Source: Actinomycetes bacterium
Lineage (GTDB): Bacteria; Actinomycetota; Actinomycetes; DATJPE01
Assembly (NCBI GenBank): GCA_035506535.1
Contig: DATJPE010000063.1
Span: 163,903-227,902 of the forward strand
Direction: 5' to 3'
DNA: 64,000 bases
Positions 14,154 to 64,000 of the stretch are shown piece by piece. A program made the translations under genes and the position numbers. A model generated the notes under the pieces. It worked only from the letters and a program-made list of their open reading frames with translations, searched no databases and was not told the origin of the DNA. Positions within the stretch are counted from its first letter, which is position 1. Every line of letters starts with the position of its first letter.

Positions 14154-14176
14154 GGGGCGCGCCTCCTCGGTGCTGC

Positions 14177-15785: not shown

Positions 15786-16582
15786 GCCGTCACCTCGGCG
15801 TAGACGCTCCCCAGGAACCGCACCAGCGCCGCGTTGAACAGGTCCGGTCGCTCGAAGTACATGGAGTGCGGGCCCTCCGGCACGACGTCGACCGCCACCC
15901 CGGGCAGCAGCTCGCCGGCCTTGCGTACCGTCGTCGCGCTGAGCACGGCGTCGAGCTCGCCCGCGAGCAGCAGGATCGGGAACCCGGCCGCGGCCAGGTC
16001 GTCGGGCCGGGGTCCGTCACTGGTCAGGTTCGTCAGGTCGGCCATCTTCGCGGTGTTGAACGTGCCCATCTGCTGGAACAGGAACGCCTTGTCCGGCCGC
16101 TCCCGCTGGAAGGCGGGGCTGAGCAAGCGGTCGAGCACCGGCATCGTCTCCGCGGCCGCGCGGTCGGCCTTGACCAGGGCAGCGAGCTCCGGGTGGTCGA
16201 CGCCACCGAGGGAGTGGGCGAGGACCACGCCCGCCACGCGGGCCGGCGTACGCAACGCCGCCTTCAGCGCCGCCGCGGCACCGATCGACTGCCCGACGAG
16301 CACCGCCCGGGTCACCCCCTGGGCGGCCACCTCGTCGAGAACCGCGGTGATGTCGTCGACGAAGAGGCGGGCATCGAGCGGACCTCCGGTCGTCGAGGAG
16401 GATGACCGCCCGAAGCCCCGCAGGTCGACGGTCACGGTGGTGTACGTCTGGCGCAGCGCCGACACCTGCTGCCACCACGCCATGTGGTGACCGCCGGAGC
16501 CGTGCACGAACAGCACGGCGGGGCCACTGCCGTGGACCTCGTAGTAGACGCGCGCTCCGTCGCGCGCCTCGACGAATGGCAC
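15782..16582 (-). CDS. alpha/beta hydrolase (meta-cleavage product hydrolase-like)
   Basis: HGSGGHH oxyanion region and a GQSIGAA nucleophile elbow; 266 aa. Confidence 0.7.
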   Translation of the reverse strand: MPFVEARDGARVYYEVHGSGPAVLFVHGSGGHHMAWWQQVSALRQTYTTVTVDLRGFGRSSSSTTGGPLDARLFVDDITAVLDEVAAQGVTRAVLVGQSIGAAAALKAALRTPARVAGVVLAHSLGGVDHPELAALVKADRAAAETMPVLDRLLSPAFQRERPDKAFLFQQMGTFNTAKMADLTNLTSDGPRPDDLAAAGFPILLLAGELDAVLSATTVRKAGELLPGVAVDVVPEGPHSMYFERPDLFNAALVRFLGSVYAEVTA

Positions 16583-27628: not shown

Positions 27629-27647
27629 CGGTGGGTTCTCCCAGTGC

Positions 27648-29348
27648 TCAGCGGGTGAGGTGGACTGACACGACGGCGGGCTGGCCGGCACGCGCGACCT
27701 CGACCGCCTCCTTGAGGGCCGAGGGCAGCTCGTGTGCGGTGTCGACGCGAACACCGTGAGCGCCGCAGGCGCGCGCGATCGCCGCCGGGTCCGGCTGGCC
27801 GTCGAGGGAGACGCCGAAGAACCTCCCCGTCGAGACGGCCGCGCCGTCGGGATATGACCGGACATGGTTGTGCCGCATGGACAGGTAGCTGCCGTTGGTG
27901 AAGACGACCACGAGAAGCGGCAGACCGAGCACGCGGGAGGCCATGAGCGCCTGGACGAACGGGTTGTACAGCAGTGAGCCGTCGCCGACGGTGAGGACGA
28001 CCAGCCGCTCCCCGACGGCGAGCTTGACGCCGAGCGCCCATCCGCTGCCCTGGCCGAGTCCGCCCTGGACGTAGTAGTACCGTCCCGGCTGGTCCGCCAT
28101 GAGGTGCTGGACGAGCAGGCGACTGTGCGTGATCGTCTCGTCGACGACCACCGCGTCCTCCGGCAGCGTCTCGCGCAGCGCAACCGCGAGCGCTACGGGG
28201 TCCACCGGCCCGTCGGGCCGACCGGCCGCCCGCTCCTCGGCTGCTCGGCGGTCACGTTCACGAGCCTCGTGGACTGCCACGGCAGCGGTACGGCGCTCCT
28301 CGACCACCCCGCTGTCGGGCACACCGATCTCCCGCAACCTCCTGGTGAGCGCGCCCAGCGTGAGCGCCGTGTCCCCGCGCACGTAGGCGTCGGCGTCGAG
28401 CACCTGGTAGGCGACGTGGGGTCGCTGGGGTACGTCGTCGACGACGAGCGTGCGGATCCCGTCGGGAACCGCGGACGGCGGGTACCAGGGAGCACGGCAG
28501 CTGAGGAGCACCACGAGGTCGGCGTCGGCGGCAGCGTCGGCCGCGTCCCCCCCACCGTGCAGGGGGTGACGGCGCGAGAAGTTCGCGCACACGGCGGACT
28601 GCGGCTCGACCACCGGTGCGCCAACCGTCTCGGCGAAGGCGAGCAGCGCCGCCCACTGGGCGGTCGTACGTCCGCCCGACTCGGTGACCACGACGGGCCG
28701 GCGGGCGGCGGCCAGCATCCGAACAGCGACGTCGAGGTCGGCCTCACTCGCGACAGTGGCCCCCACCGGGGGGACCCGACGGCCACCGCGTGGAGCCCAC
28801 GGGGCGAGCAGCACCTCGACCGGAACGTTGACATAGACCGGGCCGGCGGGTGGTGCCGCGGCCAGCTCCGCCGCGCGTGTGACCATGCCGCGCACGACGG
28901 CGACGTCGGCGGCGGTGTTCGACCACTTCGTGAACGGGGCCGCCACTCCCTGGGGACCGCCGACCACGGAGAGGTTGCGATACCACTGCGACCCGGGGTC
29001 CGGTCCGGCTGCATCGCCATACCCGGTGGACTCACCGGAGCACACCACCATCGGCACTCCGGCGAGCAGCGCGCCGTGGATCGCGTTCGCCCCCTGCAAC
29101 AGGCCGGCCGCGGCGTGCAGGAGGACCACCTGCGCGCGTCCGGTGACCAGGCCGTACCCGGTGGCCATGCCGACGGCGAGCGTCTCGTGCGTCAGGTCCA
29201 GGTACCGCGGACCGGGGATCGCGTCGCGCTCGGCGCGGGCCAGCGCCTCCCACACCGGCGCCCACTCAGAACCCGCCGAGGAGAAGACGTAGTCCGCGCC
29301 GAGGTCACGGCACGCCTGCAGGAGCGCCTCGCCGCCGTCCAGGCTCAC
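27648..29348 (-). CDS. thiamine-diphosphate-dependent enzyme (acetolactate-synthase-like three-domain architecture)
   Basis: GTG at 29348. The N-terminal Pyr domain is LLQACRDLGADYVFSSAGSEW; the C-terminal PP domain is GLGQGSGWALGVKLA...GDGS...N. Confidence 0.8.
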   Translation of the reverse strand: MSLDGGEALLQACRDLGADYVFSSAGSEWAPVWEALARAERDAIPGPRYLDLTHETLAVGMATGYGLVTGRAQVVLLHAAAGLLQGANAIHGALLAGVPMVVCSGESTGYGDAAGPDPGSQWYRNLSVVGGPQGVAAPFTKWSNTAADVAVVRGMVTRAAELAAAPPAGPVYVNVPVEVLLAPWAPRGGRRVPPVGATVASEADLDVAVRMLAAARRPVVVTESGGRTTAQWAALLAFAETVGAPVVEPQSAVCANFSRRHPLHGGGDAADAAADADLVVLLSCRAPWYPPSAVPDGIRTLVVDDVPQRPHVAYQVLDADAYVRGDTALTLGALTRRLREIGVPDSGVVEERRTAAVAVHEARERDRRAAEERAAGRPDGPVDPVALAVALRETLPEDAVVVDETITHSRLLVQHLMADQPGRYYYVQGGLGQGSGWALGVKLAVGERLVVLTVGDGSLLYNPFVQALMASRVLGLPLLVVVFTNGSYLSMRHNHVRSYPDGAAVSTGRFFGVSLDGQPDPAAIARACGAHGVRVDTAHELPSALKEAVEVARAGQPAVVSVHLTR

Positions 29349-43434: not shown

Positions 43435-43791
43435 GTGTTCCACGAGTTCGTCCACGTGTGCTTGCTCGCCTGCGGGCTGATGTTCTGGGTCCCCGTGCTC
43501 GGCCAGGACCCCGCGACCAGGCGTCCGCGCTATCACCGCGGGCTGGCGATGGTCGCGATTGGTGTGCCGGTCTACGCGGCCATAGCGTGGGGGATGTGGG
43601 CCGAGGGGCAGTTCGTCAGCCCTGATCACTCCTTGTCCGACATCCACCTGGGAGCAGTGGCGATGGTCGTCGGTGGCGCCGCCCTGTCGCTCGCCGGCGC
43701 CGCCGTCGCGATGGTGCAGGAGCTCCACCACCGCCGGCTGGTCCGGTCGCGCGCGACCCGGCGCGCCACAAACGTGGTGGCGGCCGCATGA
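43435..43791 (+). CDS. small hydrophobic ORF (possible remnant of a CopD/CtaG-like membrane protein); coding status uncertain
   Basis: There is a high-GC3 frame from the GTG at 43435 (alternative ATG at 43480) to a stop overlapping the moaA ATG (ATGA). The translation is hydrophobic (LLACGLMFWVPVLGQ...LAMVAIGVPVYAAIAWGMWAEG...AVAMVVGGAALSLAGAAVAMV). The upstream 420 bp have no clean ORF. Confidence 0.35.
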   Translation: MFHEFVHVCLLACGLMFWVPVLGQDPATRRPRYHRGLAMVAIGVPVYAAIAWGMWAEGQFVSPDHSLSDIHLGAVAMVVGGAALSLAGAAVAMVQELHHRRLVRSRATRRATNVVAAA

Positions 43792-44801
43792 GCGCCACAC
43801 GGGACGCCTTCGGGCGTCGGCTCGGCGACCTTCGGCTGTCGGTCACCGACCGGTGCAACCTGCGGTGCACGTACTGCATGCCGCGGGAGCTCTTCGGCGC
43901 CAACCACGAGTTCCTGCCTCGTCAGGAGATCCTCAGCTACGAGGAGTTCGCCCGGCTGGTGTCGGTGTTCGCCGGGCTCGGCGTAGGCAAGGTACGGCTC
44001 ACCGGCGGCGAGCCACTTCTGCGCCGCGACGTCGAGACGCTCGTGACCGCCGTCGCCCGCACTCCCGGCATCACCGATGTGGCGATGACGACCAACGGCA
44101 CCCTCCTCGCCGCCCGCGCCGCCTCGCTGCGCGACGCCGGGCTCGACCGGCTGACCGTGAGCCTCGACAGCGTCGACCCGGACACCTTCGCCTCGATGGC
44201 GGACACCCGCGTGGCGCTCCAGACCGTCCTCGACGGCATCGACGCCGCGGTTGCGGCCGGCTTCGCGCCGGTGAAGCTCAACGCCGTGGTGCGCCGGGGG
44301 GTCAACGACGCGGGGATCCTCGACCTGGTGCGCTACGCCCGGGACGGCCGGCACGTGCTGCGCCTCATCGAGTACATGGACGTCGGGGCGACCAACGGCT
44401 GGGTGCTCGACGACGTCGTGCCCGCCGAGGAGATCTTGCGCCGGATCGACGAGGTGTACCCCCTGCGGGCGCTGGCCCCTGCCCGCCCCGGAGAGGTGGC
44501 CAAGCGCTGGGCGTACGCCGACGGCGGCGGCGAGATCGGACTGATCACCTCGGTGAGCCGGCCCTTCTGCGGGGACTGCACCCGCGCGCGAATCACCTCG
44601 ACCGGCGAGCTGTTCACCTGCCTGTTCGCCTCCCGTGGGACCGATCTGCGGGCCTTGCTGCGGGGCGGGGCGACCGATGAGGACCTTCGCCAGGCGATCC
44701 GGCGGGTCTGGGCCTCCCGCGACGACCGCTATTCCGAGCTGCGGCACCAGCTGACCCCCGCCCACCCGGCGCGCGCCGAGATGTCCTACCTCGGCGGCTG
44801 A
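43788..44801 (+). CDS. moaA: GTP 3',8-cyclase (molybdenum cofactor biosynthesis protein A, radical SAM)
   Basis: Radical-SAM motif CNLRCTYCMP and a MoaA C-terminal cluster (CGDCTRARITSTGELFTCLF). Confidence 0.9.
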   Translation: MSATRDAFGRRLGDLRLSVTDRCNLRCTYCMPRELFGANHEFLPRQEILSYEEFARLVSVFAGLGVGKVRLTGGEPLLRRDVETLVTAVARTPGITDVAMTTNGTLLAARAASLRDAGLDRLTVSLDSVDPDTFASMADTRVALQTVLDGIDAAVAAGFAPVKLNAVVRRGVNDAGILDLVRYARDGRHVLRLIEYMDVGATNGWVLDDVVPAEEILRRIDEVYPLRALAPARPGEVAKRWAYADGGGEIGLITSVSRPFCGDCTRARITSTGELFTCLFASRGTDLRALLRGGATDEDLRQAIRRVWASRDDRYSELRHQLTPAHPARAEMSYLGG

Positions 44802-44904
44802 CCCGCCGCCTCGGCAAGCCCTGCCTCGCGGGTGCCGGTTGAGGACCAAGGTCCCGGTGTCGCGGGCAGTTGGCCCGCGGCAGCGGCTGGCCGGAGGGGC
44901 CAGC

Positions 44905-45519
44905 ATGGAGGAGGCTTCATCGCGAGGAGGCGGGCTGCGCGTGTTCCAGATCCGGGTCCACGGCCGAGGCGGGCAGGGCGTGGTCACGACAGCCGAGCTG
45001 CTGTCGGTGGCCGCGTTCCTCGACGGTCACGAGGCACAGGCCTTCCCGAGCTTCGGCTCCGAGCGGATGGGCGCGCCCGTCATGGCGTTCTGCCGGATCG
45101 ACCACGTGCCCATCAGGGTGCGCGAGCCGGTGGCCGAGCCCGACGCCGTGATCGTGTCCGACCCGACCCTGCTCCACCACGTCGCGGTCTTCGCCGGCCT
45201 GGATCCGGACGGGTACGTGCTCATCAACTCCACGCACGGATGGGAGGAGCTCGGCCTGGCCGACCTGCACGAGTCGCACCGGCCGGAGCGGCTGGTCACC
45301 GTCCCGGCCACCGAGATCGCGCGCAGGTACACCGGCCGCCCGCTTCCCAACGCCTGCCTGCTCGGCGCGTTCGTCGCGCTCACCGGGGTGGTGGCCATGG
45401 ACTGCGTCGAACAAGCGATCCGCGAGCGGTTCTCGACGCGGGTCGCCGAGGGCAACATCGCCGCCGCGCTCGCGGCGTACGAGCGTGCCGGTGCTCGCGA
45501 GGAGGCCCTCGATGCGTAG
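44905..45519 (+). CDS. 2-oxoacid:ferredoxin oxidoreductase gamma subunit (PorC-like)
   Basis: ATG at 44905 follows GGAGGGG. The translation (IRVHGRGGQGVVTTAELLSVAAF...ERMGAPV) matches the POR/KOR gamma subunit fold. Confidence 0.8.
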   Translation: MEEASSRGGGLRVFQIRVHGRGGQGVVTTAELLSVAAFLDGHEAQAFPSFGSERMGAPVMAFCRIDHVPIRVREPVAEPDAVIVSDPTLLHHVAVFAGLDPDGYVLINSTHGWEELGLADLHESHRPERLVTVPATEIARRYTGRPLPNACLLGAFVALTGVVAMDCVEQAIRERFSTRVAEGNIAAALAAYERAGAREEALDA

Positions 45520-46762
45520 GCAGATTGAAGGCTCCCGAGCCATCGCCGAGACCGTCGCCTGCTGCCGCCCCGGGGTCGTGGCCGCCTACCCCATCACGCC
45601 CCAGACGCACATCGTCGAGGCCCTCGGATCGGCGGTGAAGAGCGGTGCGCTCACCGGGTGCCGCTTCATCCCCGTCGAGTCCGAGTTCGCTGCGATGTCG
45701 GCGTCGATCGGGGCCTCGGCCGCCGGCTCGCGCGCCTATACCGCGACAGCCAGCCAGGGGCTGCTGTACATGACCGAGGCACTGTTCAACGCCTCCGGTC
45801 TCGGGCTGCCCATCGTCATGACCGTCGCCAATCGCGCGATCGGGGCCCCCATCAACATCTGGAACGACCAGAGCGACTCGATGAGCCAGCGCGACTGCGG
45901 CTGGGTGCAGCTGTACGCGGAGGACAACCAGGCCGCGGTCGATCTCCACGTGCTCGGGTTCCGGCTGGCGGAGGAGTTGTCCGTCCCCGTCATGGTGTGC
46001 ATGGACGGGTTCGTTCTCACCCACGCCGTCGAGCCCATCGACGTCCCGGCCCAGGAGCAGGTCGACGCCTTCCTGCCGTCTTATCGGCCGCAACAGGTGC
46101 TGGACCCCGACGAACCGGTCACCATCGGCGCGATGGTGGGCCCCGAGGCGTTCACCGAGGTCCGCTACCTCGCCCACCACCACCAGCTGCGGGCGCTCGA
46201 GATCCTGCCGTCGCTCGCCCAGGAGCTTCATGCGGTTCTGGGGCGGACGGTCGCGCCGTTGACGGCGTACGGCGTCGACGGCGCCGAGACCGTCGTCGTC
46301 ACGATCGGGTCGGCCACCGGGACCATGCGCGACGTCGCGGACGAGCTCGAGGCCCGCGGGGAGCAGATCGGCGTGCTCGCGCTCACCGCCTTCCGCCCGT
46401 TCCCGTACGCGGAGGTGCGCTCGGCTCTGGAGGGTGCCACGCACGTGATCGTCCTCGAGCGCGCCTTCGCCCCGGGGGCCGGCGGAATCGTGAGCTGCGA
46501 TGTGGCATCGGCGCTCGAGGACCTGCCGGTCGACGTGAGCACCGTCGTCGCCGGCCTGGGCGGTCGGGCGGTGAGCAAGAGCTCGCTGCACCGGATGCTC
46601 GCCGACGCCGCGGACGGCCGGCTGGCGCGCCTGGCCTTCCTCGACCTGCAGACCGACCTGGTCGAGCAGGAACTGGCCCGCGTCGGGCACCCGCAACGGA
46701 CGCGGTCTCCGACCCTCGACGTGCTGCGCGACGCAGGCGTCCCCGGCTCGCGGGTCCGGTGA
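45512..46762 (+). CDS. 2-oxoacid:ferredoxin oxidoreductase alpha subunit (PorA-like)
   Basis: The translation (GSRAIAETVACCRPGVVAAYPITPQTHIVE) shows POR alpha domains I and II; about 416 aa. Confidence 0.85.
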   Translation: MRRQIEGSRAIAETVACCRPGVVAAYPITPQTHIVEALGSAVKSGALTGCRFIPVESEFAAMSASIGASAAGSRAYTATASQGLLYMTEALFNASGLGLPIVMTVANRAIGAPINIWNDQSDSMSQRDCGWVQLYAEDNQAAVDLHVLGFRLAEELSVPVMVCMDGFVLTHAVEPIDVPAQEQVDAFLPSYRPQQVLDPDEPVTIGAMVGPEAFTEVRYLAHHHQLRALEILPSLAQELHAVLGRTVAPLTAYGVDGAETVVVTIGSATGTMRDVADELEARGEQIGVLALTAFRPFPYAEVRSALEGATHVIVLERAFAPGAGGIVSCDVASALEDLPVDVSTVVAGLGGRAVSKSSLHRMLADAADGRLARLAFLDLQTDLVEQELARVGHPQRTRSPTLDVLRDAGVPGSRVR

Positions 46763-46772
46763 GGAGGCCGTC

Positions 46773-47777
46773 ATGCCCACGCAGGACGTGAAGTTCTATC
46801 AGGTGGGAAGCCGTGCCGTCGGGAACCGGCTGCTCGACGAGGAACAGCGCACCGAGCAGGCCAGTCCCCTGCGGCGCAACTCGCTGAACTCCGGCCACCG
46901 TGCCTGTCAAGGGTGCGGGGAGGCGCTCGGCGCGCGCTACGTCGTCGACGCGGCGTACCGCGCGACCGGGGGGCGCCTGGTGGTCGTGAACGCGACCGGC
47001 TGCCTGGAGGTGTTCTCCTCCCCCTACCCAGAGAGCTCCTGGCAGGTGCCGTGGCTGCACTCGGTGTTCGCCAACGCGCCCGCGGTCGCCGCGGGAGTCG
47101 CCGCCGCCCTGGAGGCCCAGGGACGGACCGACGTACGCGTTCTCGCGCAAGGTGGTGACGGTGGGACCGTCGACATCGGACTGGCCTGCCTGTCCGGCAT
47201 GTTCGAGCGAAACGACGACGTGTTCTACGTCTGCTACGACAACGAGGCGTACATGAACACCGGCGTGCAGCGCTCCGGTGCGACGCCGGCGTACGCCCGC
47301 ACGGCGACCACCGAGGCGGTCGGACCCGAGCCCGGCAACCCGATCGGGCAGGGCAAGGACGTCCCGAGGATCGCGATGGCGCACGACATCCCCTACGTCG
47401 CCACGGCGACGGTCGCGGAGCTGCACGACCTCGAGGCCAAGGTGGCCCGCGCGATGGCGATGCGTGGAGCGCGGTACCTGCACGTGCTCGTCCCGTGCCC
47501 CCTCGGGTGGGGGTCGGCGGCATCGGACACGGTGCGCCTGGCCAGGCTCGCGCAGCGCAGCGGACTGTTCCCGGTCTTCGAGGCCGAGCACGGCGAGGTC
47601 ACGTCGGTGCTCCCCATCCGCGGTCAGGTACCCGTCGAGGACTACCTGCGTCCCCAGAAGCGATACGCCCACCTGTTCCGTGAGCCCGAACGCACCGACC
47701 TGATCGCGCGGATCCAGGGGGTCGCCGACCGCACCATCGCTCGCTACGGGCTGCTGCGAGACGGAGGGGAACGGTGA
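46773..47777 (+). CDS. 2-oxoacid:ferredoxin oxidoreductase beta subunit (ThDP-binding, PorB-like)
   Basis: A GAGGAGG RBS precedes the ATG. The translation has an N-terminal Cys cluster SGHRACQGCGE and a ThDP motif GDGG...N. Confidence 0.85.
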   Translation: MPTQDVKFYQVGSRAVGNRLLDEEQRTEQASPLRRNSLNSGHRACQGCGEALGARYVVDAAYRATGGRLVVVNATGCLEVFSSPYPESSWQVPWLHSVFANAPAVAAGVAAALEAQGRTDVRVLAQGGDGGTVDIGLACLSGMFERNDDVFYVCYDNEAYMNTGVQRSGATPAYARTATTEAVGPEPGNPIGQGKDVPRIAMAHDIPYVATATVAELHDLEAKVARAMAMRGARYLHVLVPCPLGWGSAASDTVRLARLAQRSGLFPVFEAEHGEVTSVLPIRGQVPVEDYLRPQKRYAHLFREPERTDLIARIQGVADRTIARYGLLRDGGER

Positions 47778-49402
47778 TGGAGAAGCCCTTCGCGATCACC
47801 CTCGACGTGCGGTCCAGCCTGGCCAACCACACCGGCACCTGGCGCACCGAACGGCCGGTGTACGTCGACCGGGAGCCGCCGTGCAACGCGAACTGCCCGG
47901 CGGGCGAGGACATCCAGGGCTGGCTCTATGCCGCGGAGGACGGCAGCTACGAGGCGGCCTGGCGTCATCTGGTGGCCGTCAACCCCTTCCCCGCGGTGAT
48001 GGGCCGGGTCTGCTACCACCCGTGCGAGACGGCGTGCAACCGCGCGCAGCTCGACACCGCGGTCGGCATCAACTCCGTCGAGCGCTTCCTCGGCGACGAG
48101 GCGATCGCCCGCGGCTGGGACCTGCCGAGCCCGCAGGCCGGGACCGGCAAACGCGTCCTCGTCGTGGGCGCGGGGCCGTGCGGGCTCTCCGTCGCCTACC
48201 ACCTCCGGCAGGGCGGCCACGAGGTGGAGATCCACGACGCCGGCGACCAGGCGGGCGGGATGATGCGCTACGGCATCCCGACGTTCCGGCTTCCGCGGCA
48301 CATCCTCGACCACGAGATCGACCGGCTGCTGGCCACGGGCATCACGTTGCGCCCGAGCACGACGGTGACCGACCTGCTCGCCACCTTGCGCGACGGCGGC
48401 TTCGACGCCGCCTTCCTCGCCGTCGGCGCTCAGCTCAGCCATCGGACCTACGTCCCCGCGGGACAGTCCGCGCGCATCCTCGACGCGCTCGACGTCCTGG
48501 CGCGCACGGAGGGTGGCGAGCGCCCGCAGCTCGGCCGCCGGGTCGCGGTGTACGGCGGAGGCAACACCGCCATGGACGTCGCCCGGACCGCCCGTCGTCT
48601 CGGCGCCGACGAGGCCGTGGTCGTCTACCGGCGCACGCGCGAGCGGATGCCCGCCGACGACGTCGAGGTGCGCGAGGCGCTGGAGGAGGGTGTGCAGATC
48701 CGTTGGTTGTCGACGGTGAAGCACGCCGACGGCGGCCGACTGACGCTGGAGCGCATGGAGCTCGACGACGAGGGCGTGCCTCAGCCGACCGGTGAGTTCG
48801 ACGAGCTCGAGGCCGACTCCCTCGTCCTCGCGCTCGGCCAGGACGTCGACCACTCCCTCGTCGACTCGTTGCCCGGCGTTCAGGTCACCGACGGCGTCGT
48901 GCAGGTCGGTCCGGACATGATGACGGGCTACCCCGGGGTCTTCGCCGGCGGTGACATGGTCCCGTCGACCCGTTCGGTGACGGTCTCGATCGGGCACGGC
49001 CGTACGGCGGCCCGACACATCGACGCCTGGCTGCGGGGCGGCGCCGTCGAGCCGGCCGTCGAGCGCGAGCCGGCGGACTTCGAGCTGCTCAACACGTGGT
49101 ACTACAGCGACGCCCCGCGCACCATGCGCCCGAGGCTGGACGCGGCTCGCCGGGTCTCCGACTTCGCCGAGGTGGTCGGGGGGCTGGACTCCGAGACAGC
49201 GCTGTTCGAGGCGCGACGGTGCCTGTCGTGCGGCAACTGCTTCGGCTGCGACAACTGCGTGGGGGTGTGCCCGGACAACGCGGTCCTCAAGGTCGACGCG
49301 GCGCACGGCTACGCGATCGACTACGACTACTGCAAGGGCTGCGGCATCTGCGTCGAGGAGTGTCCCTGCGGCGCGATCACCATGGAGCCCGAGATCACCT
49401 GA
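47777..49402 (+). CDS. fusion protein: GltD-like FAD/NAD(P)H pyridine-nucleotide oxidoreductase with a C-terminal 2x[4Fe-4S] ferredoxin (POR delta-like) domain
   Basis: N-terminal Fe-S Cys motifs are CNANCPAGEDIQ and VCYHPCETACNRAQ. They are followed by dinucleotide folds (VLVVGAGPCGLS and VAVYGGGNTAMD). The C-terminus has two ferredoxin CxxCxxCxxxCP motifs (CLSCGNCFGCDNCVGVCP, CKGCGICVEECPCGA). A GTG at 47774 is an alternative start. Confidence 0.8.
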   Translation: MEKPFAITLDVRSSLANHTGTWRTERPVYVDREPPCNANCPAGEDIQGWLYAAEDGSYEAAWRHLVAVNPFPAVMGRVCYHPCETACNRAQLDTAVGINSVERFLGDEAIARGWDLPSPQAGTGKRVLVVGAGPCGLSVAYHLRQGGHEVEIHDAGDQAGGMMRYGIPTFRLPRHILDHEIDRLLATGITLRPSTTVTDLLATLRDGGFDAAFLAVGAQLSHRTYVPAGQSARILDALDVLARTEGGERPQLGRRVAVYGGGNTAMDVARTARRLGADEAVVVYRRTRERMPADDVEVREALEEGVQIRWLSTVKHADGGRLTLERMELDDEGVPQPTGEFDELEADSLVLALGQDVDHSLVDSLPGVQVTDGVVQVGPDMMTGYPGVFAGGDMVPSTRSVTVSIGHGRTAARHIDAWLRGGAVEPAVEREPADFELLNTWYYSDAPRTMRPRLDAARRVSDFAEVVGGLDSETALFEARRCLSCGNCFGCDNCVGVCPDNAVLKVDAAHGYAIDYDYCKGCGICVEECPCGAITMEPEIT

Positions 49403-55413: not shown

Positions 55414-56070
55414 ATGACTCCTGTCAAGAGCTCGCGAGCTGGCGCGTCGCGCAAGGAGCAGGCACGCACGACGGCCCTGCGGATCGTCCGAGCCGCCCAT
55501 ACGCTCTTCATCGAGCGGGGATACACCGGCACGCGGATGGCCGATGTCGCCGACGCGGCAGGGGTAGCCGTCCAGACCGTGTACTTCCGGTTTCACACCA
55601 AGGCGGAGCTGCTCCATGCCTGCTACGAGCTGGCCGTGCTCGGCGAGGACGACCCGCGTCCCCCGATGGAACAGGCCTGGTTCGCGATGTTCGTGTCGGC
55701 ACGATCCGGCCCGGCCGCCATCCGCGCCTTCGCGGAGGGCAACACCGGGATCGCCACGAGGGTCGGCCAGCTCGACGACATCGTGCGCAGCGCCGTGCAC
55801 GAGCCGGAGGCCGTCGAGGTACGCCGGCGCAGCGAACAACTGCGGCGCGACGGTTACCGGCAGATGCTCCAGTCGCTCCACGATCGCTTCGGGCTGCGCG
55901 ACGGGCTGGACGTGCAGCGGGGGACCGACCTCCTCCTCGCCTTCGGAGGGACCGCGCTATGGCGCCCTCTCGTCGTCGAGTACGGCTGGACGACCGAGGA
56001 CTTCGTCGGATTGCTCACGGACGTCCTGTGCGACCAGCTCCTGCCACCCCGGCGCCGCCGGGCCCGCTGA
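55414..56070 (+). CDS. TetR family transcriptional regulator
   Basis: ATG at 55414; the longer GTG ORF from 55384 would cover the operator sites. The HTH is GYTGTRMADVADAAGVAVQTVYFRFHTKAELL. Confidence 0.75.
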   Translation: MTPVKSSRAGASRKEQARTTALRIVRAAHTLFIERGYTGTRMADVADAAGVAVQTVYFRFHTKAELLHACYELAVLGEDDPRPPMEQAWFAMFVSARSGPAAIRAFAEGNTGIATRVGQLDDIVRSAVHEPEAVEVRRRSEQLRRDGYRQMLQSLHDRFGLRDGLDVQRGTDLLLAFGGTALWRPLVVEYGWTTEDFVGLLTDVLCDQLLPPRRRRAR

Positions 56071-57076
56071 TCCGCGAGCCTGCCGCGCGCAGCCCGGCGG
56101 CCCACCCCGGGGCTCTGCCCAGGCCCGGCGGGTCGACCCCGCTCAGCTCGTGGCCGCTTCTGGCGAGGAGCCAGGACACGAGGCTGTTGGAGTTCCACAT
56201 CTCCCCGTAGCCACGTTCGTCGCGCCCCCACGTCAGGGTCGGGAACGAGGCGGCGAGGTCGAGCAGCGCGCGTACGCGCGATGAGTCCGTGGACAGCCGC
56301 ATCGGGGGACCGACACGCGCGTCGAGATCGGGGATGACCCCGTCGCGCCAGAGCCGAACCTCGTAGCGAAACCAGCGCGATCGCCCCCAGGACCTGAGCC
56401 CCACGGGCCCCGAGCAGACGACACCGCGGTCGCCACGGGGCCCTGACCAAGCGGGTGCCATCTCGACGGTGTACGGAACACCGTCCGCTGTCACCTCGAG
56501 CGCCGAATGGAAGAGCTGGCCGGGCCGGCGATGGTCGCGCCACGACTGGAGGAGCTCGAAGAGACGGCCACTCGCGCGGACCAGGCCGATCCGGTCGCCG
56601 GCCCCGAGCGGGATCCAGGACAGCGCGACCGACCAGCCGCGCGTGCAGAGCACGGCGACCACCTCGTCGGCTGCGCGCCCGACGGCGGCGGCCACGGCCT
56701 CGGACAGCTCGGACCCGACCGCGACGCTCGCCGCCTCGACGCCGACCACGGTGAGCCGAGCGGGCAGGCGGCCCAGGCCCCGGGCCAGCTCGATCGACTC
56801 GCGGACGCCGAACCCGTGGGTGCCTCCGGCACGGGGCGGGGACCGCTCGGCGGCCTGGTCCACGACGACAGATCCCGGCGGTCGGCCGGAGCGGATCGCG
56901 TCGACGACGACGACGTCGTCCCAGCCCTGCCAGGCGTCCACGAGCCGAGTGGGGACGGGGACGGCCATGAGCTCCAGGTCAGGCGTCGCGCGGCGGCGCA
57001 GCTCCTCGACCACCGCCAAGCCGACGCCGTCGTCCCCCCGGTACGGATTGCCGACTCCCACCACGAGCGCCCTCAC
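56015..57076 (-). CDS. hydrogenase maturation endopeptidase (HyaD/HybD family) carrying an additional ~190-aa C-terminal domain of unknown function
   Basis: The GTG at 57076 overlaps the large-subunit stop (GTGA). The translation is (M)[26 protein letters not shown]...DAIRSG, and the protease domain ends near residue 150. The frame continues uninterrupted to 56015. Confidence 0.65.
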
Positions 57077-58383
57077 GAGCGGTCCACCGTCACGTCGAGG
57101 AAGTGCGTCGCGCAGGAGATGCACGGGTCGTAGTTGCGGATCGCCTGCTCGCAGCGGCGGGTGAGCTCCTCGTCGTCGAGAGCGAGATTGGCCTGGGTGA
57201 AGCTCAGGAGGTCCGCCTCGATGCTCGCCTGGTTCTGCGACGTTGGCGGGACGATGCGGGCGTCGAGGATCGAGCCGTCGGCGTCGATCTCGTACCGGTG
57301 GAAGAGCACCCCGCGAGGCGCCTCTGTCGCGCCGTAGCCGACGCCGGCCCGCGGCGCCACCTCCACCGACGGTGCCGAGGCACCGGTCCAGCCGTCGATG
57401 ATGGCCAGCGCCTCCTCGCAGGCGTAGACGGTCTCCACTGCGCGCACGACGATGGAGCGGAACGGGTTGCGGCAGGGGGCGCCGAGCCCCGCCTCACTGG
57501 CTGCCTCCGCCGCACGTGGTGAGAGCCGGTCGGCGTTGAGCGCGTACCGCGCGAGGGGGCCCACGGCGTAACGTGCGCCGGACCCGGCGAGGTGCGAGTG
57601 CAGCGCGGTCGATCGTGCGACGTGCTCCTCGACGACGTGTCGGTCCAGCTCGGCGGCGTCGAAGGCCAACCCGCCCGTGGTCGTCACGCGACCACGCTCC
57701 AGCGGATAACCTTCGCCGGGCGCGCGCAGCGCGAGGTACTCGTGCGGCTGCTCGAAGACGGGGAACGCGAAAGTTCCCACGAGGCGGACTGTCTCCAGCG
57801 CGTCATCGAGCGCCTGTGCGAGCGCCGGACGGAGGTCGTCGAGCTCCTCACGGTGGGGCAGGCGATAGAAGCCGCCGACACGGACGTTCACCGGATGGAC
57901 GGAGCGACCGCCCACCAGGGTCATGAGCGCGTTGCCCGCCTTCTTCAGCCGCAACCCTCGCTCGACGACCTCGCGGTGGTCGCGCGCGAGGTCGATCGCG
58001 CTGTCGTAGCCGAGGAAGTCGGGGGCGTGCAGGAGATAGACGTGCAGCGAATGGCTCTCGATCCACTCGCCGCAGTAGAGCAACCGCCGCATGCGCCGGA
58101 TCTCGTCGGGAACCTCGACACCGCACGCCGCCTCGATGGCCTGGCAGGCACTCATCTGGTAGGCCACCGGGCAGATTCCGCAGATGCGCGCGGTGATGTC
58201 CGGCGCCTCCACGAACGAGCGTCCACGCAGCAGCGCCTCGAAGAACCTGGGCGGCTCGTAGATCCTCAGTTCGACCTCGGTGACCCGCCCGTCGACCACC
58301 CGGACGTGCATCGCCCCCTCGCCCTCGACGCGTGCCAGCGCGTCGACGCGCAGCAGGTGGTCACCGTCATGCGCGTGAGTCAT
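57073..58383 (-). CDS. [NiFe]-hydrogenase large (alpha) subunit, cytoplasmic group-3-like
   Basis: ATG at 58383 follows GGAGGAGG. The N-terminal motif is [10 protein letters not shown]. The C-terminal [18 protein letters not shown] has the DPCxxCxxH Ni-Fe site plus a short extension that the protease would remove. Confidence 0.9.
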
Positions 58384-59161
58384 GCGTGTCGGCCTCCTCC
58401 CGGAAGGCGGGCGCCTCGGCGGTGAACGTACGCAGGATCCGGACCACATCCGGCTCGCCCATCCCGTTCTCGAGCAGCCGCCCGACGAGCGACCCGACAT
58501 TGACGCCCGGGGCAGGCCCGAAGCACCCGTAGCAGCCTCGAGCGCAGGACGGGCACAACGCGCCGCAGCCGGACTGGGTCACCGGTCCGAGGCACGCCTG
58601 TCCGTGCGCGACGACGACGCAGACGTTGCCGCGACGCTTGCAGTCCGCGCAGACCGTCTCGGCCGGGATGCGCGGCGTACGTCCGTCCAGGTACGCCACG
58701 ACCACCTCGAGAAGCTGTCGCCGGTCGACCGGGCACCCGTGCAGCTCGAAGTCCACCGGCACGTGGGCGGAGATCGGCGTGGACCGGGCCAAGGTGTCGA
58801 TGTACTCGGGGCGGGCGTAGACGAGCGAGGTGAACTCGCCGACGTCGGCGAAGTTGCGTAGCGCCTGGATGCCCCCGCTGGTGGCGCAGGCGCCGATCGA
58901 GACGAGTCGGCGCGAGGCCCGTCGGATCTCCTGGACGCGTTCCAGGTCTGCGGGGGTCGTGATGGACCCTTCGACCAGCGACAGGTCGTAGGGTCCGTCG
59001 ACGTGGGCGCTGGAGGCCTCGGTGAAGTGTGCGATCTCGACGGCGTCGGCGAGCAGGAGCAGCTCGTCCTCGCAGTTCAGCAGGGTCAGCTGGCAGCCGT
59101 CGCAGGACGCGAACTTCCACACGGCCAGCCGTGGGCGAGCCGTCGCACCTCGAATCGTCAT
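58367..59161 (-). CDS. [NiFe]-hydrogenase small (delta) subunit, cytoplasmic type (no Tat signal)
   Basis: 264 aa. The proximal-cluster Cys motifs are FASCDGCQ and GACATSGG. There is no twin-arginine signal or C-terminal anchor. The ATG at 59161 overlaps the gamma stop (ATGA). Confidence 0.85.
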
Positions 59162-59967
59162 CACAGCCCCCGCATCGTCATGAGGGTGCGCGCGCGGTCG
59201 TAGCCGAGAACCGGGCCGTCGACGCACACGAACACCTCGCGAAGCTGGCAGTGACCGCAGAGCCCCACACCGCAGCGCATGTTGCGCTCCATGGACACCC
59301 GGATCTGCGACGGCACGACGCCCCGACGTACGAGCGCGTCTGCCGTGAGACGCATCATGACCTCCGGGCCGCACACGAGCACCAGAGTCGCGGCCGGGTC
59401 GAGGTCGGGCAGCACGTCGGTCACCAGGCCGACGTTGCCACGCCACGACGGCTCTCCGGCATCGACGGTCACCACGACGTCGAGATCGTCGCGAGCGGCC
59501 CACTCCTCCAGCTGAGGTCGGTAGAGCAGGTCGGTAGGTGTTCGGCTGCCGACGACGACGACGACACGACCGTAGCGCTCGCGGTGCCGCAGCACTGCGA
59601 GGACGACCGGGCGCACGGGGGCAAGGCCGATCCCGCCGGCCACCACGAGGACGTCTCCGTCGGTACCGCTCTCCTCCTCCCAGCCCCGACCGTACGGGCC
59701 CCGCGCGAAGACCGGATCGCCCACCGCGCAGCGCGTCAACGCGGCGGTCGCGTCCCCCACCGCCCGAACCGTGTGCATGAGACGCGCTGGCTCGTCAGGG
59801 TCGCCGCTGATGGAGATGGGTACCTCGCCGAAGCCCGGGCGGCCCACCATGGCGAACTGGCCCGGCCGGAACGCCATGGGGATGCCATCCACCGGTGCCA
59901 GCCCGAGCGTGACCGTGTCATGGGTCTCGGCTTGGACGTCCAGCACGGTGAACCGCCGCGGGAGCAT
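59161..59967 (-). CDS. hydrogenase gamma subunit: FNR-like FAD/NAD(P)-binding oxidoreductase with a C-terminal [2Fe-2S] motif
   Basis: ATG at 59967. The FAD-binding barrel ([22 protein letters not shown]) and NAD-binding domain ([11 protein letters not shown]) are followed by a C-terminal Cys cluster (CGVGLCGHC). Confidence 0.8.
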
Positions 59968-59995
59968 CGGCTCCGGCGGGGCGGGGCGAGTCCGC

Positions 59996-60463
59996 TCAGC
60001 GAGCACTCGGGGCCCCGTAGAGGTCGAGCAGGCGGACACGCGCCGACATCATCCGGTCGTGCATGGCACGCGCGAGTCTCTGCAGCATCAGGTACCCGAC
60101 CCGCGGGTCCTGGTCGCACTTCTCGCGCAGGCAGCCTGCGTCGAGAGCCACCGCGCTCGTGGACGACAGCGCCCGGGCGTCCATCGAGTGCCGGTACGGC
60201 GGGAACAGCCACGACAGGCCGACCACGCTGCCCGGGCCCTGCGTCTCCACGATGAGCCGCCGCTCGCCGGGTCCCTGGATCTCGATCGCGACCGAGCCAC
60301 CGCGCAGTAGGAAGAAGGTCTCGGCCGGGTCGTCCGCGCGGAACAGGTACTCGTCGGCGTCGAAGTGCCGGTTCAGCGCGCAGCCGGCGAGATGACGCAC
60401 GGTCTCCTCGTCGAGGTCCACGAAGAACGGGTGCCCCGCGATCAGCTGCTCGACGCTTCTCAT
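59996..60463 (-). CDS. cyclic-nucleotide-binding (Crp-type effector) domain protein without a DNA-binding domain
   Basis: 155 aa. The cNMP-binding beta-roll is [46 protein letters not shown]. It sits between the hydrogenase beta and gamma genes on the same strand. Confidence 0.7.
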
Positions 60464-60465
60464 GC

Positions 60466-61569
60466 TCAGCCGTCCTCTCCGCTCGCGCGGCGCAGCGCGG
60501 CGAGCTCCTGCGTGACGTCGATGCCGACCGGGCACCAGGTGACGCAGCGGCCACAGCCGACGCAGCCGCTGGTCCCGAACTGGTCCTGCCAGGAGGCGAA
60601 CTTGTGGGTCAGCCACTGGCGGTAACGCGACGCGGTCGATGCCCGCACCGGCTGACCGTGCATGAGCGAGTGCCCGCTGGTGAAGCACGAGTCCCACACA
60701 CGGTCCCTCGAGACGGACTCGGCCAGGCCCGTCGGTTCGACGGTCGTGACGCAGAAGCACGTCGGGCAGACCATCGTGCAGTTCCCGCAGGACAGGCACC
60801 GCGAGGCGACGTCGTCCCAGTGCGGGTCGTCGGCGCTCGCATAGATCAGGTCGCGGATGTCGGTCGTGTCGACGGCGCGCCCCATCGACGCAGCCGCCCG
60901 GGCCGCGACGGCCTCGGACGCGGCCAGGTCCTCCTCAGCCGCGATGCGGCTGGGGAGATCCGCCAGCAGCGAGGCGCCGGCATCGGTCCCCGCCTCGGCG
61001 ACGAAGCGATGCCCCTCGTCATCGAGGATCTCGGTCAGCGCGACGTCATACCCGCTGTCGGGCCGCGGGCCGGACCCCATCGACACGCAGAAGCAGGTTC
61101 CGCCGGGAACAGCGCACGTGACGGCGACGACGAACGTGCGGCTGCGGCGCTCGGCGTAGTCGGGATCGGCGTACTGCCGGCCGGTCAGGACGGTGTCGAG
61201 GACGGCGAGCGCCCGCAGGTCGCACGAGCGCACTCCGATGAGCGCGCGCGGGACCCGGTCCAGCGGCTCCGCGGTGGGTTCACCGTCGTCGGCCGCACGC
61301 CAGAGAGTCCGCTGCGATGGGAAGAGATAGGCCTTCCACGTGCTCACCGTCGCCGCCTGGTCGAAGAGGCGCGACTCCGCCGTCCGCTCGGCGCGGTAGC
61401 GCCCGGGGGACTGCTCGTCCCGGACCCCTCGCGGCAGGTCGTCGACGCCCGAGATCGGCGCCAGGACCACCACGCCGTCCCGAAGCGTCGGCCCGATCAG
61501 GGTGAAGCCGCGTCCGGCCAGAGTGTCCAAGAGCGCACCCAGTCCGGCGACGTCCACAACGGCGGCCAT
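60466..61569 (-). CDS. hydrogenase beta subunit: iron-sulfur (4Fe-4S dicluster) protein
   Basis: ATG at 61569 follows AGGAG. Ferredoxin-type motifs are [16 protein letters not shown] and [12 protein letters not shown]. Confidence 0.8.
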
Positions 61570-61684
61570 GGCGCTCCTACGAGGTCGACAGGCACACGAT
61601 CGGATCCGGCGCGGGACCGACAGACCCATGGTGTCGCGCCGCGCGCCACCCGGACAGGGTCACTGGTCCCCCACGTGCACGCGT

Positions 61685-61715
61685 CCCCGGGGGGGTCAGA
61701 TCCCCCCGGGGCCCC
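61685..61715 (-). terminator. strong GC hairpin (CCGGGGGG-gtcagat-CCCCCCGG) downstream of dabA; intrinsic-terminator-like, without a U tract
   Basis: Perfect 8-bp GC stem with a 7-nt loop at 61687-61709. On the transcribed strand it lies 38-60 nt after the dabA stop, in the 177-bp gap before the hydrogenase operon. Confidence 0.35.
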
Positions 61716-61746
61716 TCGAGAGGCAGAACCGACCCGCCGCTCGAGA

Positions 61747-64000
61747 TCAGAGGTCCTCCCGCGCGAGCGGCACGAGTGCTCGACGGGTCGGTGAGTGCTC
61801 CTCCCAGAGGCGCCAGTCGAGGCGACGGGTCAGCCGCCAGGCGCTGGCGTCGAACGGATCGATGGCCGCGACCGCGACCCAACCGTTGGCCACCAGGCGG
61901 GCCAGCAGGTCGTGGGAGCCGACGATCTCGCCGACCCGGCGAGGGGTGGCCCAGACGACGATCAGCTCACGCAGGGGCTCGTGCCGGCGCTCGCTCGTCG
62001 GGTGGCCCGGCGCGCCATCGAACAGCGCCTGCCACGGCAGGCCGAGCCGGAGATCACCATGAGCCCCGGTGAGCACGCCCACCTCCCCGACGACGTTGTG
62101 CGTCGACTTGTCCCCCGCGCCCAGGACGCCGGGGTCGACGGTCGACGCGTAGTACTGCGCGTTGATCCACTGGGTGACAACGGCCGGCGCCGTGAGGATC
62201 GAGGCGAGGATCGATCCGTCGGGGTCGAGCGCCGGGTCGTAGGAGTGCAGGAACACCCGGCCGTCCAGGTCGAGGCCCCGCGTGAGGGACCGCGGACCGA
62301 TGACGAAGGCTGCGTTGCCGGCCAGGCCCCACTCCGGCGCCGGCTCCGCCCAGTCGAGCGCCCGGGCGCGGACGTGCCTGGTGAGCGCGGCCGGCGCGGA
62401 TCCCGGGCGAGGCGCGCCGGGCAGGGACCCGGCACGCTCCGCACGCACGGCCCGCCCGGCGGCGCCGAGGGCCTCGCGCAGCGTCGCGACCCGTTCGGAG
62501 TACGCGGGAAACGGCGCGAACGCCGGGTCGAGCTCGACCTCGTCGGTCGTCGTGTCGTGGGCAGCCGCAACGGCCACGGTCGAGTCCGGCAGCCGGATGC
62601 CGTCGGCCGCAAGGGTCTCGCGCACCGTTGGGTCGTTGAGCACCTCGGCCAGGACTCGGGCGTTGACGTGACCACCGTTGCCGCCGCAGGCGCCGCAGTC
62701 GTAGGCGGTCGCAAAGGCGTTGTTCTCGACTGTGGCGGCATGCCCGCAGATCACCAGCAAGGGCGCGAAGTCCTCGACCAGACCGATGGTGCGCAGTGCT
62801 CCGGCGGCGAGCGCGACCCGTTGTCCATGGGTCATCCCGACCGGCAGCCCGGTATGCACCCGCCCGTGGCCGTCGGATCGTGTCGTGTCTGCAGGGATAC
62901 CCCAGCGGTCGGGCAGAGTCCACCGCTTCGACAGGCGATGCCACAGGCGTGGGGCCGCGGTCTGGACGACCGCCGCGACGCCGGCGAGCCAGCCGGTGGC
63001 CTCGGCGACGAGCAGCGGCGTCAGCGGTGCTGCTCCGATCCCCAGGGCGGCACCACGGACGGGCGGGCGGAGGCCGTCCGGCCGCGGTTGCGCGACGACG
63101 GCGAAGCTGGGCTCGAGGAGAGCCGGGCACTGGTCGAACTCGGCGCCATCGCCGGTGACATGGCGCAGCGCGGCGCCGAAGAACCCGGCGAAGCCGTACG
63201 TCGCGAACGGCCCCTGCGCCTCGAGAGCGCGACGTAAACGCTCCGAGCGGACGTCGATGCAGAAGACAGCCTGAGCCAGCGGGACAGGCCGCTTCTCCTC
63301 CAGTGAGCGACACGCAGATGCCAGTGTCTCACCACCAGCGCGAAGGTCGTCGAGAAGCGGTCGGCGGAAGCCCGCCTCGAGGGCTCGCTGCCAGGTCTCG
63401 CAGCGCGAGAGCTCCGCCGGATCCACCGGCTCGTCGTCGGCCCGGGCCCTCAGGGTGTTTGTCGCGTCGCCGACGAGGAGCAGCTCGAGTACGACCCGCA
63501 CAACAGCGAGCTCCAGCACTGGCGTCGGGTCAGCGAAGACGCGCGCGCGCCACTGGGCGTGAGCCGTCCAGCCCGGAAGGCCGCTCAGCAACCGGGTCAG
63601 GTACTCGACGATCATCGTTTCGTCGATGCCGGCGCGGCTGCACAGGAGGGCAAGCGCCTCGGCGGGATCCTCGGGGAGGCCCTCGATGAGGCGACTGGCC
63701 CCGCGCAGGCCCAGAGCCCCGTCGTACGCGCTGTGCACGCACGTCTGGCGGAGCCGCACCCACGGGCCCGAGCCGTTCGACGCGGTCCCCGACCACGCGC
63801 GCTGGCACCACCAGGCGGCGTGCTCGTCGGATGTCTCGGAGGAATCGGGTCGGCGCTTCGCGTCCGCGGGAGCGGGCTCGCGGGACGCGGCGCAGCGAGC
63901 GGTGCGGACGAGCGACTCGACCATGGCGTCGAGGTTGGCCCCTGGGGCCGGGATCCCTCGGTCCACGAACTGCTCGACCAGCGCCTCTCTCAGGTCGGCG
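61747..64000 (-). CDS. dabA: DabA (DUF2309/UPF0753), putative CA-like subunit of a DAB-type energy-coupled inorganic-carbon pump; 5' end lies outside the window
   Basis: The frame stays open to the window edge. The translation contains DabA-family metal-site motifs (VFCIDVRSE and ICGHAATVEN...YDCGACGG) and a C-terminal YYASTVDPG...GAGDKSTHNV region. Confidence 0.8.
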   Translation of the reverse strand, partial: ADLREALVEQFVDRGIPAPGANLDAMVESLVRTARCAASREPAPADAKRRPDSSETSDEHAAWWCQRAWSGTASNGSGPWVRLRQTCVHSAYDGALGLRGASRLIEGLPEDPAEALALLCSRAGIDETMIVEYLTRLLSGLPGWTAHAQWRARVFADPTPVLELAVVRVVLELLLVGDATNTLRARADDEPVDPAELSRCETWQRALEAGFRRPLLDDLRAGGETLASACRSLEEKRPVPLAQAVFCIDVRSERLRRALEAQGPFATYGFAGFFGAALRHVTGDGAEFDQCPALLEPSFAVVAQPRPDGLRPPVRGAALGIGAAPLTPLLVAEATGWLAGVAAVVQTAAPRLWHRLSKRWTLPDRWGIPADTTRSDGHGRVHTGLPVGMTHGQRVALAAGALRTIGLVEDFAPLLVICGHAATVENNAFATAYDCGACGGNGGHVNARVLAEVLNDPTVRETLAADGIRLPDSTVAVAAAHDTTTDEVELDPAFAPFPAYSERVATLREALGAAGRAVRAERAGSLPGAPRPGSAPAALTRHVRARALDWAEPAPEWGLAGNAAFVIGPRSLTRGLDLDGRVFLHSYDPALDPDGSILASILTAPAVVTQWINAQYYASTVDPGVLGAGDKSTHNVVGEVGVLTGAHGDLRLGLPWQALFDGAPGHPTSERRHEPLRELIVVWATPRRVGEIVGSHDLLARLVANGWVAVAAIDPFDASAWRLTRRLDWRLWEEHSPTRRALVPLAREDL

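Follow-up and report, generated by a model that had tools for sequence, protein, structure and literature searches.

A stand-alone CRP-type sensor domain encoded between the beta and gamma subunit genes as a putative accessory subunit of bacterial group 3b [NiFe]-hydrogenases

A 64,000-nucleotide (nt) stretch of the genome of an Actinomycetes bacterium (contig DATJPE010000063.1, positions 163,903 to 227,902; here called the window) carries a [NiFe]-hydrogenase operon in which a gene for a 155-amino-acid (aa) protein with a cyclic-nucleotide-binding (CNB) domain lies between the genes for the beta and gamma subunits. Comparison of this gene with its homologues indicated that the resulting five-gene order is the prevalent bacterial form of the group 3b operon across many phyla, among the operons sampled. 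We consider it reasonably probable that the CNB protein is a dimeric, CRP-derived sensor which sits on the beta/gamma electron-input module and tunes the activity or reactivation of the enzyme in response to redox state or to a ligand other than a cyclic nucleoside monophosphate (cNMP). The protein would then be a non-catalytic accessory subunit of the bacterial group 3b enzyme, docking on the beta/gamma module probably as a dimer formed through its C-terminal helix (C-helix). A remodelled pocket, in which G-W-S-W-L-x-P-P-Y-R-W-x-F-D-A-R-A would take the place of the G-E...R-S/T-A of cNMP binders, would respond to redox state or to a small molecule, and this response would take effect post-translationally.

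The best solved relatives of the alpha and beta subunits were chains of Pyrococcus furiosus sulfhydrogenase I (9nez_D, E = 1.6e-72, and 9nez_B, E = 8.5e-34, respectively), which places the operon, as judged by sequence, in group 3b (NADPH-linked, sulfhydrogenase-type). All four subunits had Shy/Hyd (sulfhydrogenase) subunits as their best NCBIfam matches, though below the equivalog cut-offs. The original prediction for this locus had described the CNB gene as lying on the same strand as beta and gamma, with gaps of 2 nt and 28 nt, and had supposed cotranslation with the structural subunits; the coordinates and a wider set of loci bore this out. The beta stop codon (TGA, 60468-60466) lies 2 nt ahead of the CNB start (ATG, 60463-60461), and a Shine-Dalgarno-like GGAGAGGA motif is present inside the 3' end of the beta gene, ahead of the CNB gene. 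The CNB stop codon occupies 59998-59996, and the 28-nt gap is counted to the gamma ATG at 59967; the longest gamma open reading frame (ORF) would begin at a GTG at 60039 and overlap the CNB gene, but the start was set at the ATG because alignments with homologues begin at residue 1-4 of that shorter form. In 47 of 55 loci the CNB gene starts at most 10 nt past the beta stop; the median distance between the two is -4 nt, the most frequent values being -14, -4 and +1, and the median gap between the CNB and gamma genes was +31 nt. These results indicated that the CNB gene is translated in step with beta and gamma via tight translational coupling.

Searches with the CNB protein detected 482 homologues at E <= 1e-3, nearly all of 150-160 aa, and 847 representatives (50% identity level) at E <= 1e-30, numbers well beyond those expected by chance; an identical protein is on record from an 'Actinomycetes bacterium' metagenome-assembled genome (MAG). 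The original prediction had treated the gene as an insert that group 3b operons of related actinobacteria might share. Such operons do carry it, in Longivirga and Acidimicrobiales and in Rhodococcus and Streptomyces rimosus replicons, but the term insert was too narrow, as the order beta-CNB-gamma-delta-alpha-protease was found in at least 8 phylum-level lineages. Examples outside Actinomycetota were plasmids of Burkholderia, Paraburkholderia and Pandoraea, one Deltaproteobacteria MAG and one Chloroflexota (Limnocylindria) MAG. Five loci were picked by beta similarity alone, so that presence of a CNB gene played no part in their choice, and all five (from KSB1, one metagenome contig, Terriglobia, Fraserbacteria and Bipolaricaulia) had a CNB gene between beta and gamma; the proteins tested from these loci scored 199-259 bits against the hidden Markov model (HMM) of the family. 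A tblastn survey of 72,556 plasmids with a concatenated beta, CNB and gamma query detected the gene in 12 of 15 plasmid-borne 3b beta-gamma pairs. A metagenome set of 80 loci, found via the family motifs, contained 70 that were evaluable for neighbours, with beta directly upstream in 46 and gamma directly downstream in 45. The anaerobic sulfite reductase AsrABC has subunits, AsrA and AsrB, that resemble beta and gamma, but asrA and asrB adjoin each other, and none of the ~40 asrAB operons met in the plasmid survey had a CNB gene separating the two.

Selection on the gene was examined in closely related operon pairs by the method of Nei and Gojobori (NG86), each gene being compared within the same pairs. 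The ratio of nonsynonymous to synonymous substitution rates (dN/dS) was 0.17-0.44 for the CNB gene, 0.16-0.51 for beta, 0.18-0.41 for gamma and 0.09-0.33 for delta and alpha (one delta pair reached 0.53), values that serve solely as a comparison with neighbouring genes because dS is probably underestimated by NG86 at a third-position G+C content of ~0.9. The CNB gene is under purifying selection matching that on beta and gamma. Furthermore, an alignment of 40 sequences with 46-63% identity to the window protein had 14 invariant and 32 nearly invariant columns. The original prediction had named a decaying insertion as the outcome to be expected if the gene were absent from orthologous operons and its ligand-binding residues degraded. 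The part on ligand-binding residues applied only partly: the canonical cNMP-binding residues are missing, but another conserved motif has replaced them and they are not degraded. Some 3b operons do lack the gene. The rest of the description did not apply: the gene is present in orthologous operons, in all of the lineages counted above, and its dN/dS is the same as that of the neighbouring subunit genes. A decaying or selfish insertion without function has next to no probability and was excluded by the selection and conservation data.

The predicted fold agreed with a stand-alone Crp-type beta-roll without a helix-turn-helix (HTH) motif, as had been claimed, and added a C-helix that ends at the hinge. 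PF00027 (cNMP_binding) matched residues 32-119 with an E-value of 4e-14 and a score of 52.8 bits (gathering cut-off, 27.5), and no HTH or other DNA-binding family was found in the 155-aa protein with Pfam or NCBIfam. An AlphaFold2 (AF2) model, with a predicted local distance difference test score of 91.5, had beta-roll strands and helices in the order expected for a CNB fold, including a short cassette helix (83-86) and a 30-residue C-terminal helix (120-149). The nearest structures in Foldseek were 3mdp and then Mycobacterium tuberculosis CRP and GlxR, with a probability of 1.00. The first of these, the structural-genomics entry for the 'putative cyclic nucleotide-binding protein' Gmet_1532 of Geobacter metallireducens, was the best match by both sequence (E = 2.2e-22) and structure (template modelling score of 0.92 on the target, root mean square deviation of 1.8 A). 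It is also a stand-alone domain and has a related loop, G-V-S-S-L-I-K-P-Y-H-Y-T-S-S-A-R-A, but is only 25% identical and lacks three cysteines and an R-L-L-D-L-Y-G tail that are present in the window protein. The sensor domains of CRP/FNR factors (Escherichia coli CRP, M. tuberculosis CRP, GlxR and DNR) have the same fold and the same helix order; unlike these factors, the CNB protein lacks a winged-helix DNA-binding domain, and it has other residues in place of the Glu and Arg of the cNMP contact. In an alignment to E. coli CRP, the CNB protein stops at the hinge, 5-8 residues past a hinge-equivalent L-L-D-L, where CRP runs on into its HTH. The CNB protein presumably cannot bind DNA by itself; it would descend from a CRP/FNR-type regulator of which it has kept the sensor domain and the dimerisation helix but not the DNA-binding domain.

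In cNMP receptors of the CRP, PKA-R, PKG and HCN type, the cassette Glu contacts the ribose 2'-OH and the cassette Arg contacts the phosphate. The residue equivalent to CRP Glu72 is Leu83 in the window protein and Trp in 78 of 90 family members, and at the position of Arg82 the window protein has His92 and the family has Trp or Tyr. Compared to CRP, the loop has one residue fewer, and the cNMP-receptor cassette G-E-x-x-x ... R-[ST]-A is absent from the window protein and from the family. The family loop instead carries a nearly invariant motif, G82-W-S84-W85-L86-x-P88-P89-Y-R91-W-x-F-D95-A96-R97-A98, and the C terminus an invariant tail, R137...R142-x-R-L-L-D147-L-Y149-G. These replacements tell against the cyclic-nucleotide ligand of the original prediction. 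A genuine receptor for cyclic AMP (cAMP) or cyclic GMP (cGMP), switching the hydrogenase allosterically with the cyclic-nucleotide level, would suit the significant PF00027 match, the conserved Arg91 and Ser84 in the phosphate-binding-cassette region, a fold whose best matches after 3mdp are the cAMP-bound CRP of M. tuberculosis and GlxR, and the richness of Actinobacteria in cAMP signalling. It is at odds with the replaced Glu72 and Arg82 equivalents and the shortened loop, and no adenylate cyclase was found within ~12 kb in the window; moreover, many CRP/FNR-fold domains bind heme, 2-oxoglutarate or Fe-S clusters. As judged by its sequence, a role of the CNB protein as a cAMP or cGMP receptor is unlikely, and we give this explanation about one chance in ten, in words a decidedly poor one.

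A physical link between the CNB protein and the beta subunit was suggested by natural fusions. A profile search detected P0176, a protein of 542 aa in which a beta part is followed by a CNB domain of the family, and 12 distinct beta-CNB fusions of 539-546 aa were found that were only 49-76% identical to P0176, a spread of identity because of which a sequencing artefact could be ruled out. All 12 carried Fer4_22 and PF00027, on contigs of up to 153 kb, and the fused CNB domains scored 147-205 bits against the family HMM. At one such locus (L099/L100, 7001-9184) the next gene after the fusion encodes a second CNB protein, a free one (133 aa, N-terminally shortened, 141 bits), and gamma, delta, alpha, HycI and HypF-HypC-HypD come after it; one fused and one free copy is a suggestive arrangement, being the picture expected of a CNB dimer at the beta C terminus. 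The CNB protein probably binds the beta subunit, because twelve diverged fusions of the two exist. Two further candidates were set aside: P0199 (773 aa), a 'beta-CNB-gamma' entry in a public protein set, is an out-of-frame high-GC read-through artefact, and P0200, a CNB-gamma fusion, is doubtful, its C-terminal motif being corrupted.

The fusions also bear on the possibility of a regulator that acts away from the enzyme. The C-helix and the hinge motif R-x-R-L-L-D-L-Y-G form the dimerisation element of CRP-family proteins, and through this C-helix the CNB protein might pair with a full-length CRP/FNR protein as a co- or anti-regulator. Database entries annotate the protein as a 'CRP/FNR family transcriptional regulator', a Frankia genome paper calls the gene a 'small transcriptional regulator' (PMC11879354), and orphan paralogues occur in unrelated neighbourhoods, some of them by TetR or LuxR genes. 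Such a role sits poorly with the lack of an HTH, the constant place of the gene between two structural genes, where stop and start codons overlap, the twelve diverged covalent fusions to beta and an evolutionary rate equal to that of beta and gamma, and we regard it as very unlikely. A protein-level (allosteric or complex-level) role fits better than transcriptional control, which the original prediction had also disfavoured, and the natural fusions support this.

The closest functional precedent is HoxI of the Cupriavidus necator (Ralstonia eutropha) soluble NAD+-reducing hydrogenase, a CNB-domain homodimer on the diaphorase module that serves as the site at which NADPH activates the oxidised enzyme (PMC3702609, PMC3189943). 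Like the window protein, HoxI (C. necator H16, group 3d) is a stand-alone CNB-only protein, both falling within 155-167 aa, whose gene belongs to the operon of a cytoplasmic [NiFe]-hydrogenase linked to pyridine nucleotides; in both, the canonical phosphate-binding Arg is missing and His-Ser stands at that place. However, identity was only 22% (hoxI taken from pHG1), and HoxI keeps G-E-L and is without W-S-W-L-x-P-P, the Cys triad and the R-L-L-D-L-Y-G tail. The hoxI gene comes behind that for the protease in the operon of a HoxFU (complex I-like) enzyme, whereas the CNB gene lies between AsrA-like and AsrB-like genes. Against the family HMM, HoxI scored 43 bits compared to 125-260 for members, 77 for 3mdp and 30 for E. 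coli CRP; PKG and M. tuberculosis CRP, unrelated CNB proteins, scored 60-70 bits, so that the HoxI score was no better than theirs. Orthology with HoxI was rejected on the 22% identity and on the score of 43 bits against at least 125 for members, and HoxI is best read from these comparisons as an analogue that arose by independent recruitment of the same fold. By this analogy, the most plausible ligand would be NAD(P)H or some other cofactor that contains adenine or is aromatic.

HoxI, which is lost from its enzyme at high salt and alkaline pH, also provides an argument for an assembly or maturation factor of the beta/gamma module, one that would help to insert Fe-S clusters or FAD or to dock subunits, and that would be absent from the mature enzyme. 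We know of no chaperone role for the CNB fold; the conserved pocket suggests ligand binding, and the stable beta fusion of one clade keeps the domain on the mature subunit. An assembly factor would fit the operon position and coupling and the dispensability of the gene in some 3b operons, and HoxI itself readily comes off its enzyme once that is purified (PMC3189943). Taking both sides together, this explanation is most unlikely.

Three cysteines are conserved in the family (Cys28 and Cys111 at ~97% and Cys116 at ~92% of 90 sequences, operon-linked and orphan copies taken together), and the triad is likewise present in KSB1 and Terriglobia copies. A redox role for these residues is possible, and they raise the explanation that the protein is a redox or O2 sensor, working by a Cys28/Cys111(/Cys116) disulfide switch, a metal or Fe-S site, or heme in the aromatic pocket, as in CooA and DNR, which would gate electron flow or protect the enzyme on return of O2. 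To our knowledge, the spacing of the cysteines is unlike that of any Fe-S motif. An operon copy in Rhodococcus qingshengii is without the triad, and in the fusion clade the cysteines are variable; the motif and the C-terminal tail are retained throughout the family, even where cysteines are missing. The Rhodococcus case can be argued both ways, Cys28 and Cys111 having been lost jointly, but in an operon copy for which they are evidently dispensable. The genomic context is favourable to a redox or O2 sensor, as homologous operons lie among hypoxia-type genes and the mycobacterial enzyme, Hyh, is hypoxia induced and, in M. smegmatis, encoded in a DosR-regulated neighbourhood (bioRxiv 10.1101/2023.09.11.557286). 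We rate a redox or O2 sensor of this kind as unlikely. Four of the homologous operons (L003, L011, L012 and L103) are flanked by hypoxia- or dormancy-type genes for ppsA, wax-ester synthase/diacylglycerol acyltransferase (DGAT), universal stress protein (USP) and CBS-domain proteins, a setting that matches the Hyh neighbourhood of M. smegmatis.

Several observations weigh against the proposed dimeric sensor on the beta/gamma module, the loss and variability of the cysteines among them. Arg91 is conserved one position ahead of the canonical Arg site, and phosphate binding is in principle possible. An AF2 model of a beta-CNB fusion had two confident domains joined by a disordered linker, with a predicted template modelling score of 0.63 and no confident inter-domain geometry. 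The gene is dispensable in some group 3b enzymes: in three Streptomyces megaplasmids, beta and gamma are adjacent without a CNB gene, and the solved P. furiosus sulfhydrogenase (PDB 9nez) has four subunits and no CNB chain. P. furiosus sulfhydrogenase I and mycobacterial Hyh have alpha, beta, gamma and delta subunits homologous to those of the window, but number four subunits, with no CNB gene. The M. smegmatis Hyd3 genes MSMEG_3931-3927 encode beta, gamma, delta, alpha and the protease under consecutive locus tags (PMC2799521); from these tags and from four-subunit descriptions of the enzyme, the operon appears to be without a CNB gene. Because some 3b operons are without it, the CNB gene is not essential for catalysis. 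In addition, about a third of the close family members (29 of 81) lie away from hydrogenase genes, and the module can thus work off the operon. Finally, a literature search found no functional, structural or biochemical study of a 3b-linked CNB protein, and likewise no paper on the P. furiosus sulfhydrogenase I structure.

The Streptomyces sp. NBC_01340 plasmid (L014) has beta at 14001-15029 and gamma at 15151-15948, separated by a gap of ~120 nt with no CNB gene between them; a stand-alone paralogue with 39% identity lies 12 kb off on the other strand (27307-27654).

The orphan copies had varied neighbours (Band 7, VIT1, TetR, LuxR, aldehyde dehydrogenase, nitroreductase, and a HycI-like protein with pentapeptide repeats) and, in a rough neighbour-joining tree, formed two clades nested inside the operon-linked sequences. 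They retain the motif, in the form P-P-Y-R-Y-F-G-D-A-R-A, and the cysteines, and they look like escaped paralogues. Orphan loci include L019, L025, L038, L045, L057, L060, L061, L068, L088 and L095. A small orphan clade (L026, L027, L028 and L053) has genes for a HycI-like protease and a pentapeptide-repeat protein after the CNB gene, and no hydrogenase subunits were found within 4 kb of the CNB gene at these four loci.

CNB-domain accessory subunits of soluble [NiFe]-hydrogenases already have a precedent in HoxI, and the 3b-linked gene has been mentioned in three genome papers, the Frankia paper cited above and two others, in which it is listed without comment for Rhodococcus equi (PMC13332983) and named HoxI in a methanotroph (PMC12319191). 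We found no earlier description of how prevalent it is, of its remodelled pocket and Cys triad, or of its natural fusions. Common annotations can be corrected: on its own the protein is no transcription factor, it is not orthologous to HoxI, and binding of cAMP is improbable. Group 3b enzymes are among the most widespread hydrogenases of soil and sediment bacteria and are involved in hypoxic H2 fermentation in mycobacteria, and the current picture of them rests on two four-subunit enzymes, those of P. furiosus and M. smegmatis. If most bacterial 3b enzymes carry a sensing subunit, then regulation, cofactor specificity and recovery from O2 may differ from these models, and heterologous expression for biocatalysis should include the CNB gene. 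A more specific version can be offered tentatively, as a possibility that we hold to be rather improbable: most bacterial 3b enzymes would be five-component enzymes, in which a CRP-derived dimer, no longer responsive to cyclic nucleotides, reads NAD(P)H/NADP+ or redox state/O2 with a Trp-rich pocket and a Cys pair and switches electron flow between the flavin subunit gamma and the Fe-S subunit beta on or off. Were this true, aerobes that meet hypoxia would have a valve, acting after translation, on their production of H2 by fermentation, and in the orphan paralogues this switch would serve other partners.

The features of the operon and of two other regions of the window are collected in Table 1.

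Table 1. Genes of the hydrogenase operon and other features of the window
Feature	Position	Strand	Characteristics and matches
HycI-type maturation protease (369 aa)	56015-57124	minus	PF01750 and TIGR00072, residues 20-158
Alpha (large, [NiFe])	57073-58383	minus	PF00374; NCBIfam ShyA E = 5e-86; RICGIC and DPCISCATH motifs
Delta (small subunit)	58367-59161	minus	PF01058 E = 6.6e-23; NCBIfam ShyD/HydD
Gamma (HyhG/HydG, AsrB-like; FAD/NAD(P)-binding and 2Fe-2S)	59161-59967	minus	PF00175, PF10418; NCBIfam AsrB, HydG
CNB gene (155 aa; putative fifth/accessory subunit)	59996-60463	minus	Beta-roll and long C-terminal helix, PF00027
Beta (HyhB/HydB, AsrA-like, two 4Fe-4S motifs)	60466-61629	minus	PF17179 Fer4_22 E = 5.5e-32; NCBIfam ShyB/HydB/AsrA
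DabA	61747-63966	minus	PF10070 E = 9e-182
MoaA, then 2-oxoacid:ferredoxin oxidoreductase gamma, alpha and beta subunits and an NfnB/SudA-like protein	43788-49402	plus	

Two start codons are possible for beta, the ATG at 61629 and that at 61569, and the delta ATG and the gamma stop codon have one base in common. A 267-aa ORF with a GTG start (59996-60799, minus), which overlaps the 3' end of beta, was rejected as an out-of-frame high-GC artefact. A promoter and terminator scan of 55800-64000 gave no signals and was uninformative at the 71% G+C of the window. The protease of homologous operons has 150-175 aa, compared to 369 aa for the HycI-type ORF of the window, and the C-terminal extension of the latter (~210 aa, 56015-56644) had no Pfam or NCBIfam family match.

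Directly upstream of beta lies the gene for DabA, a probable inorganic-carbon uptake subunit whose partner, DabB, would fall past the end of the window. The 2-oxoacid:ferredoxin oxidoreductase (OFOR) subunit genes are followed by a gene for an NfnB/SudA-like protein with Fer4_20, Pyr_redox_2 and Fer4 domains. An OFOR and SudA-like pair also adjoins the 3b operon in the Fraserbacteria MAG (L105:1-3770), and the presence of this pair near a 3b operon in both genomes suggests a recurrent route from 2-oxoacid via ferredoxin and NADPH to H2.

A related CNB domain was also detected in 2-5 tandem copies in a separate group of proteins (P0121, P0122-P0130, P0128, P0197 and P0249). The loop of these domains, G-W-S-A-V-x-E-P-x-V-Y-T-A-S-A-W, resembles that of PDB 3mdp, and some of the proteins have a conserved C-terminal domain with '...VIWDNGE.QLTTEAVLIGMG...PDVIPL...'.

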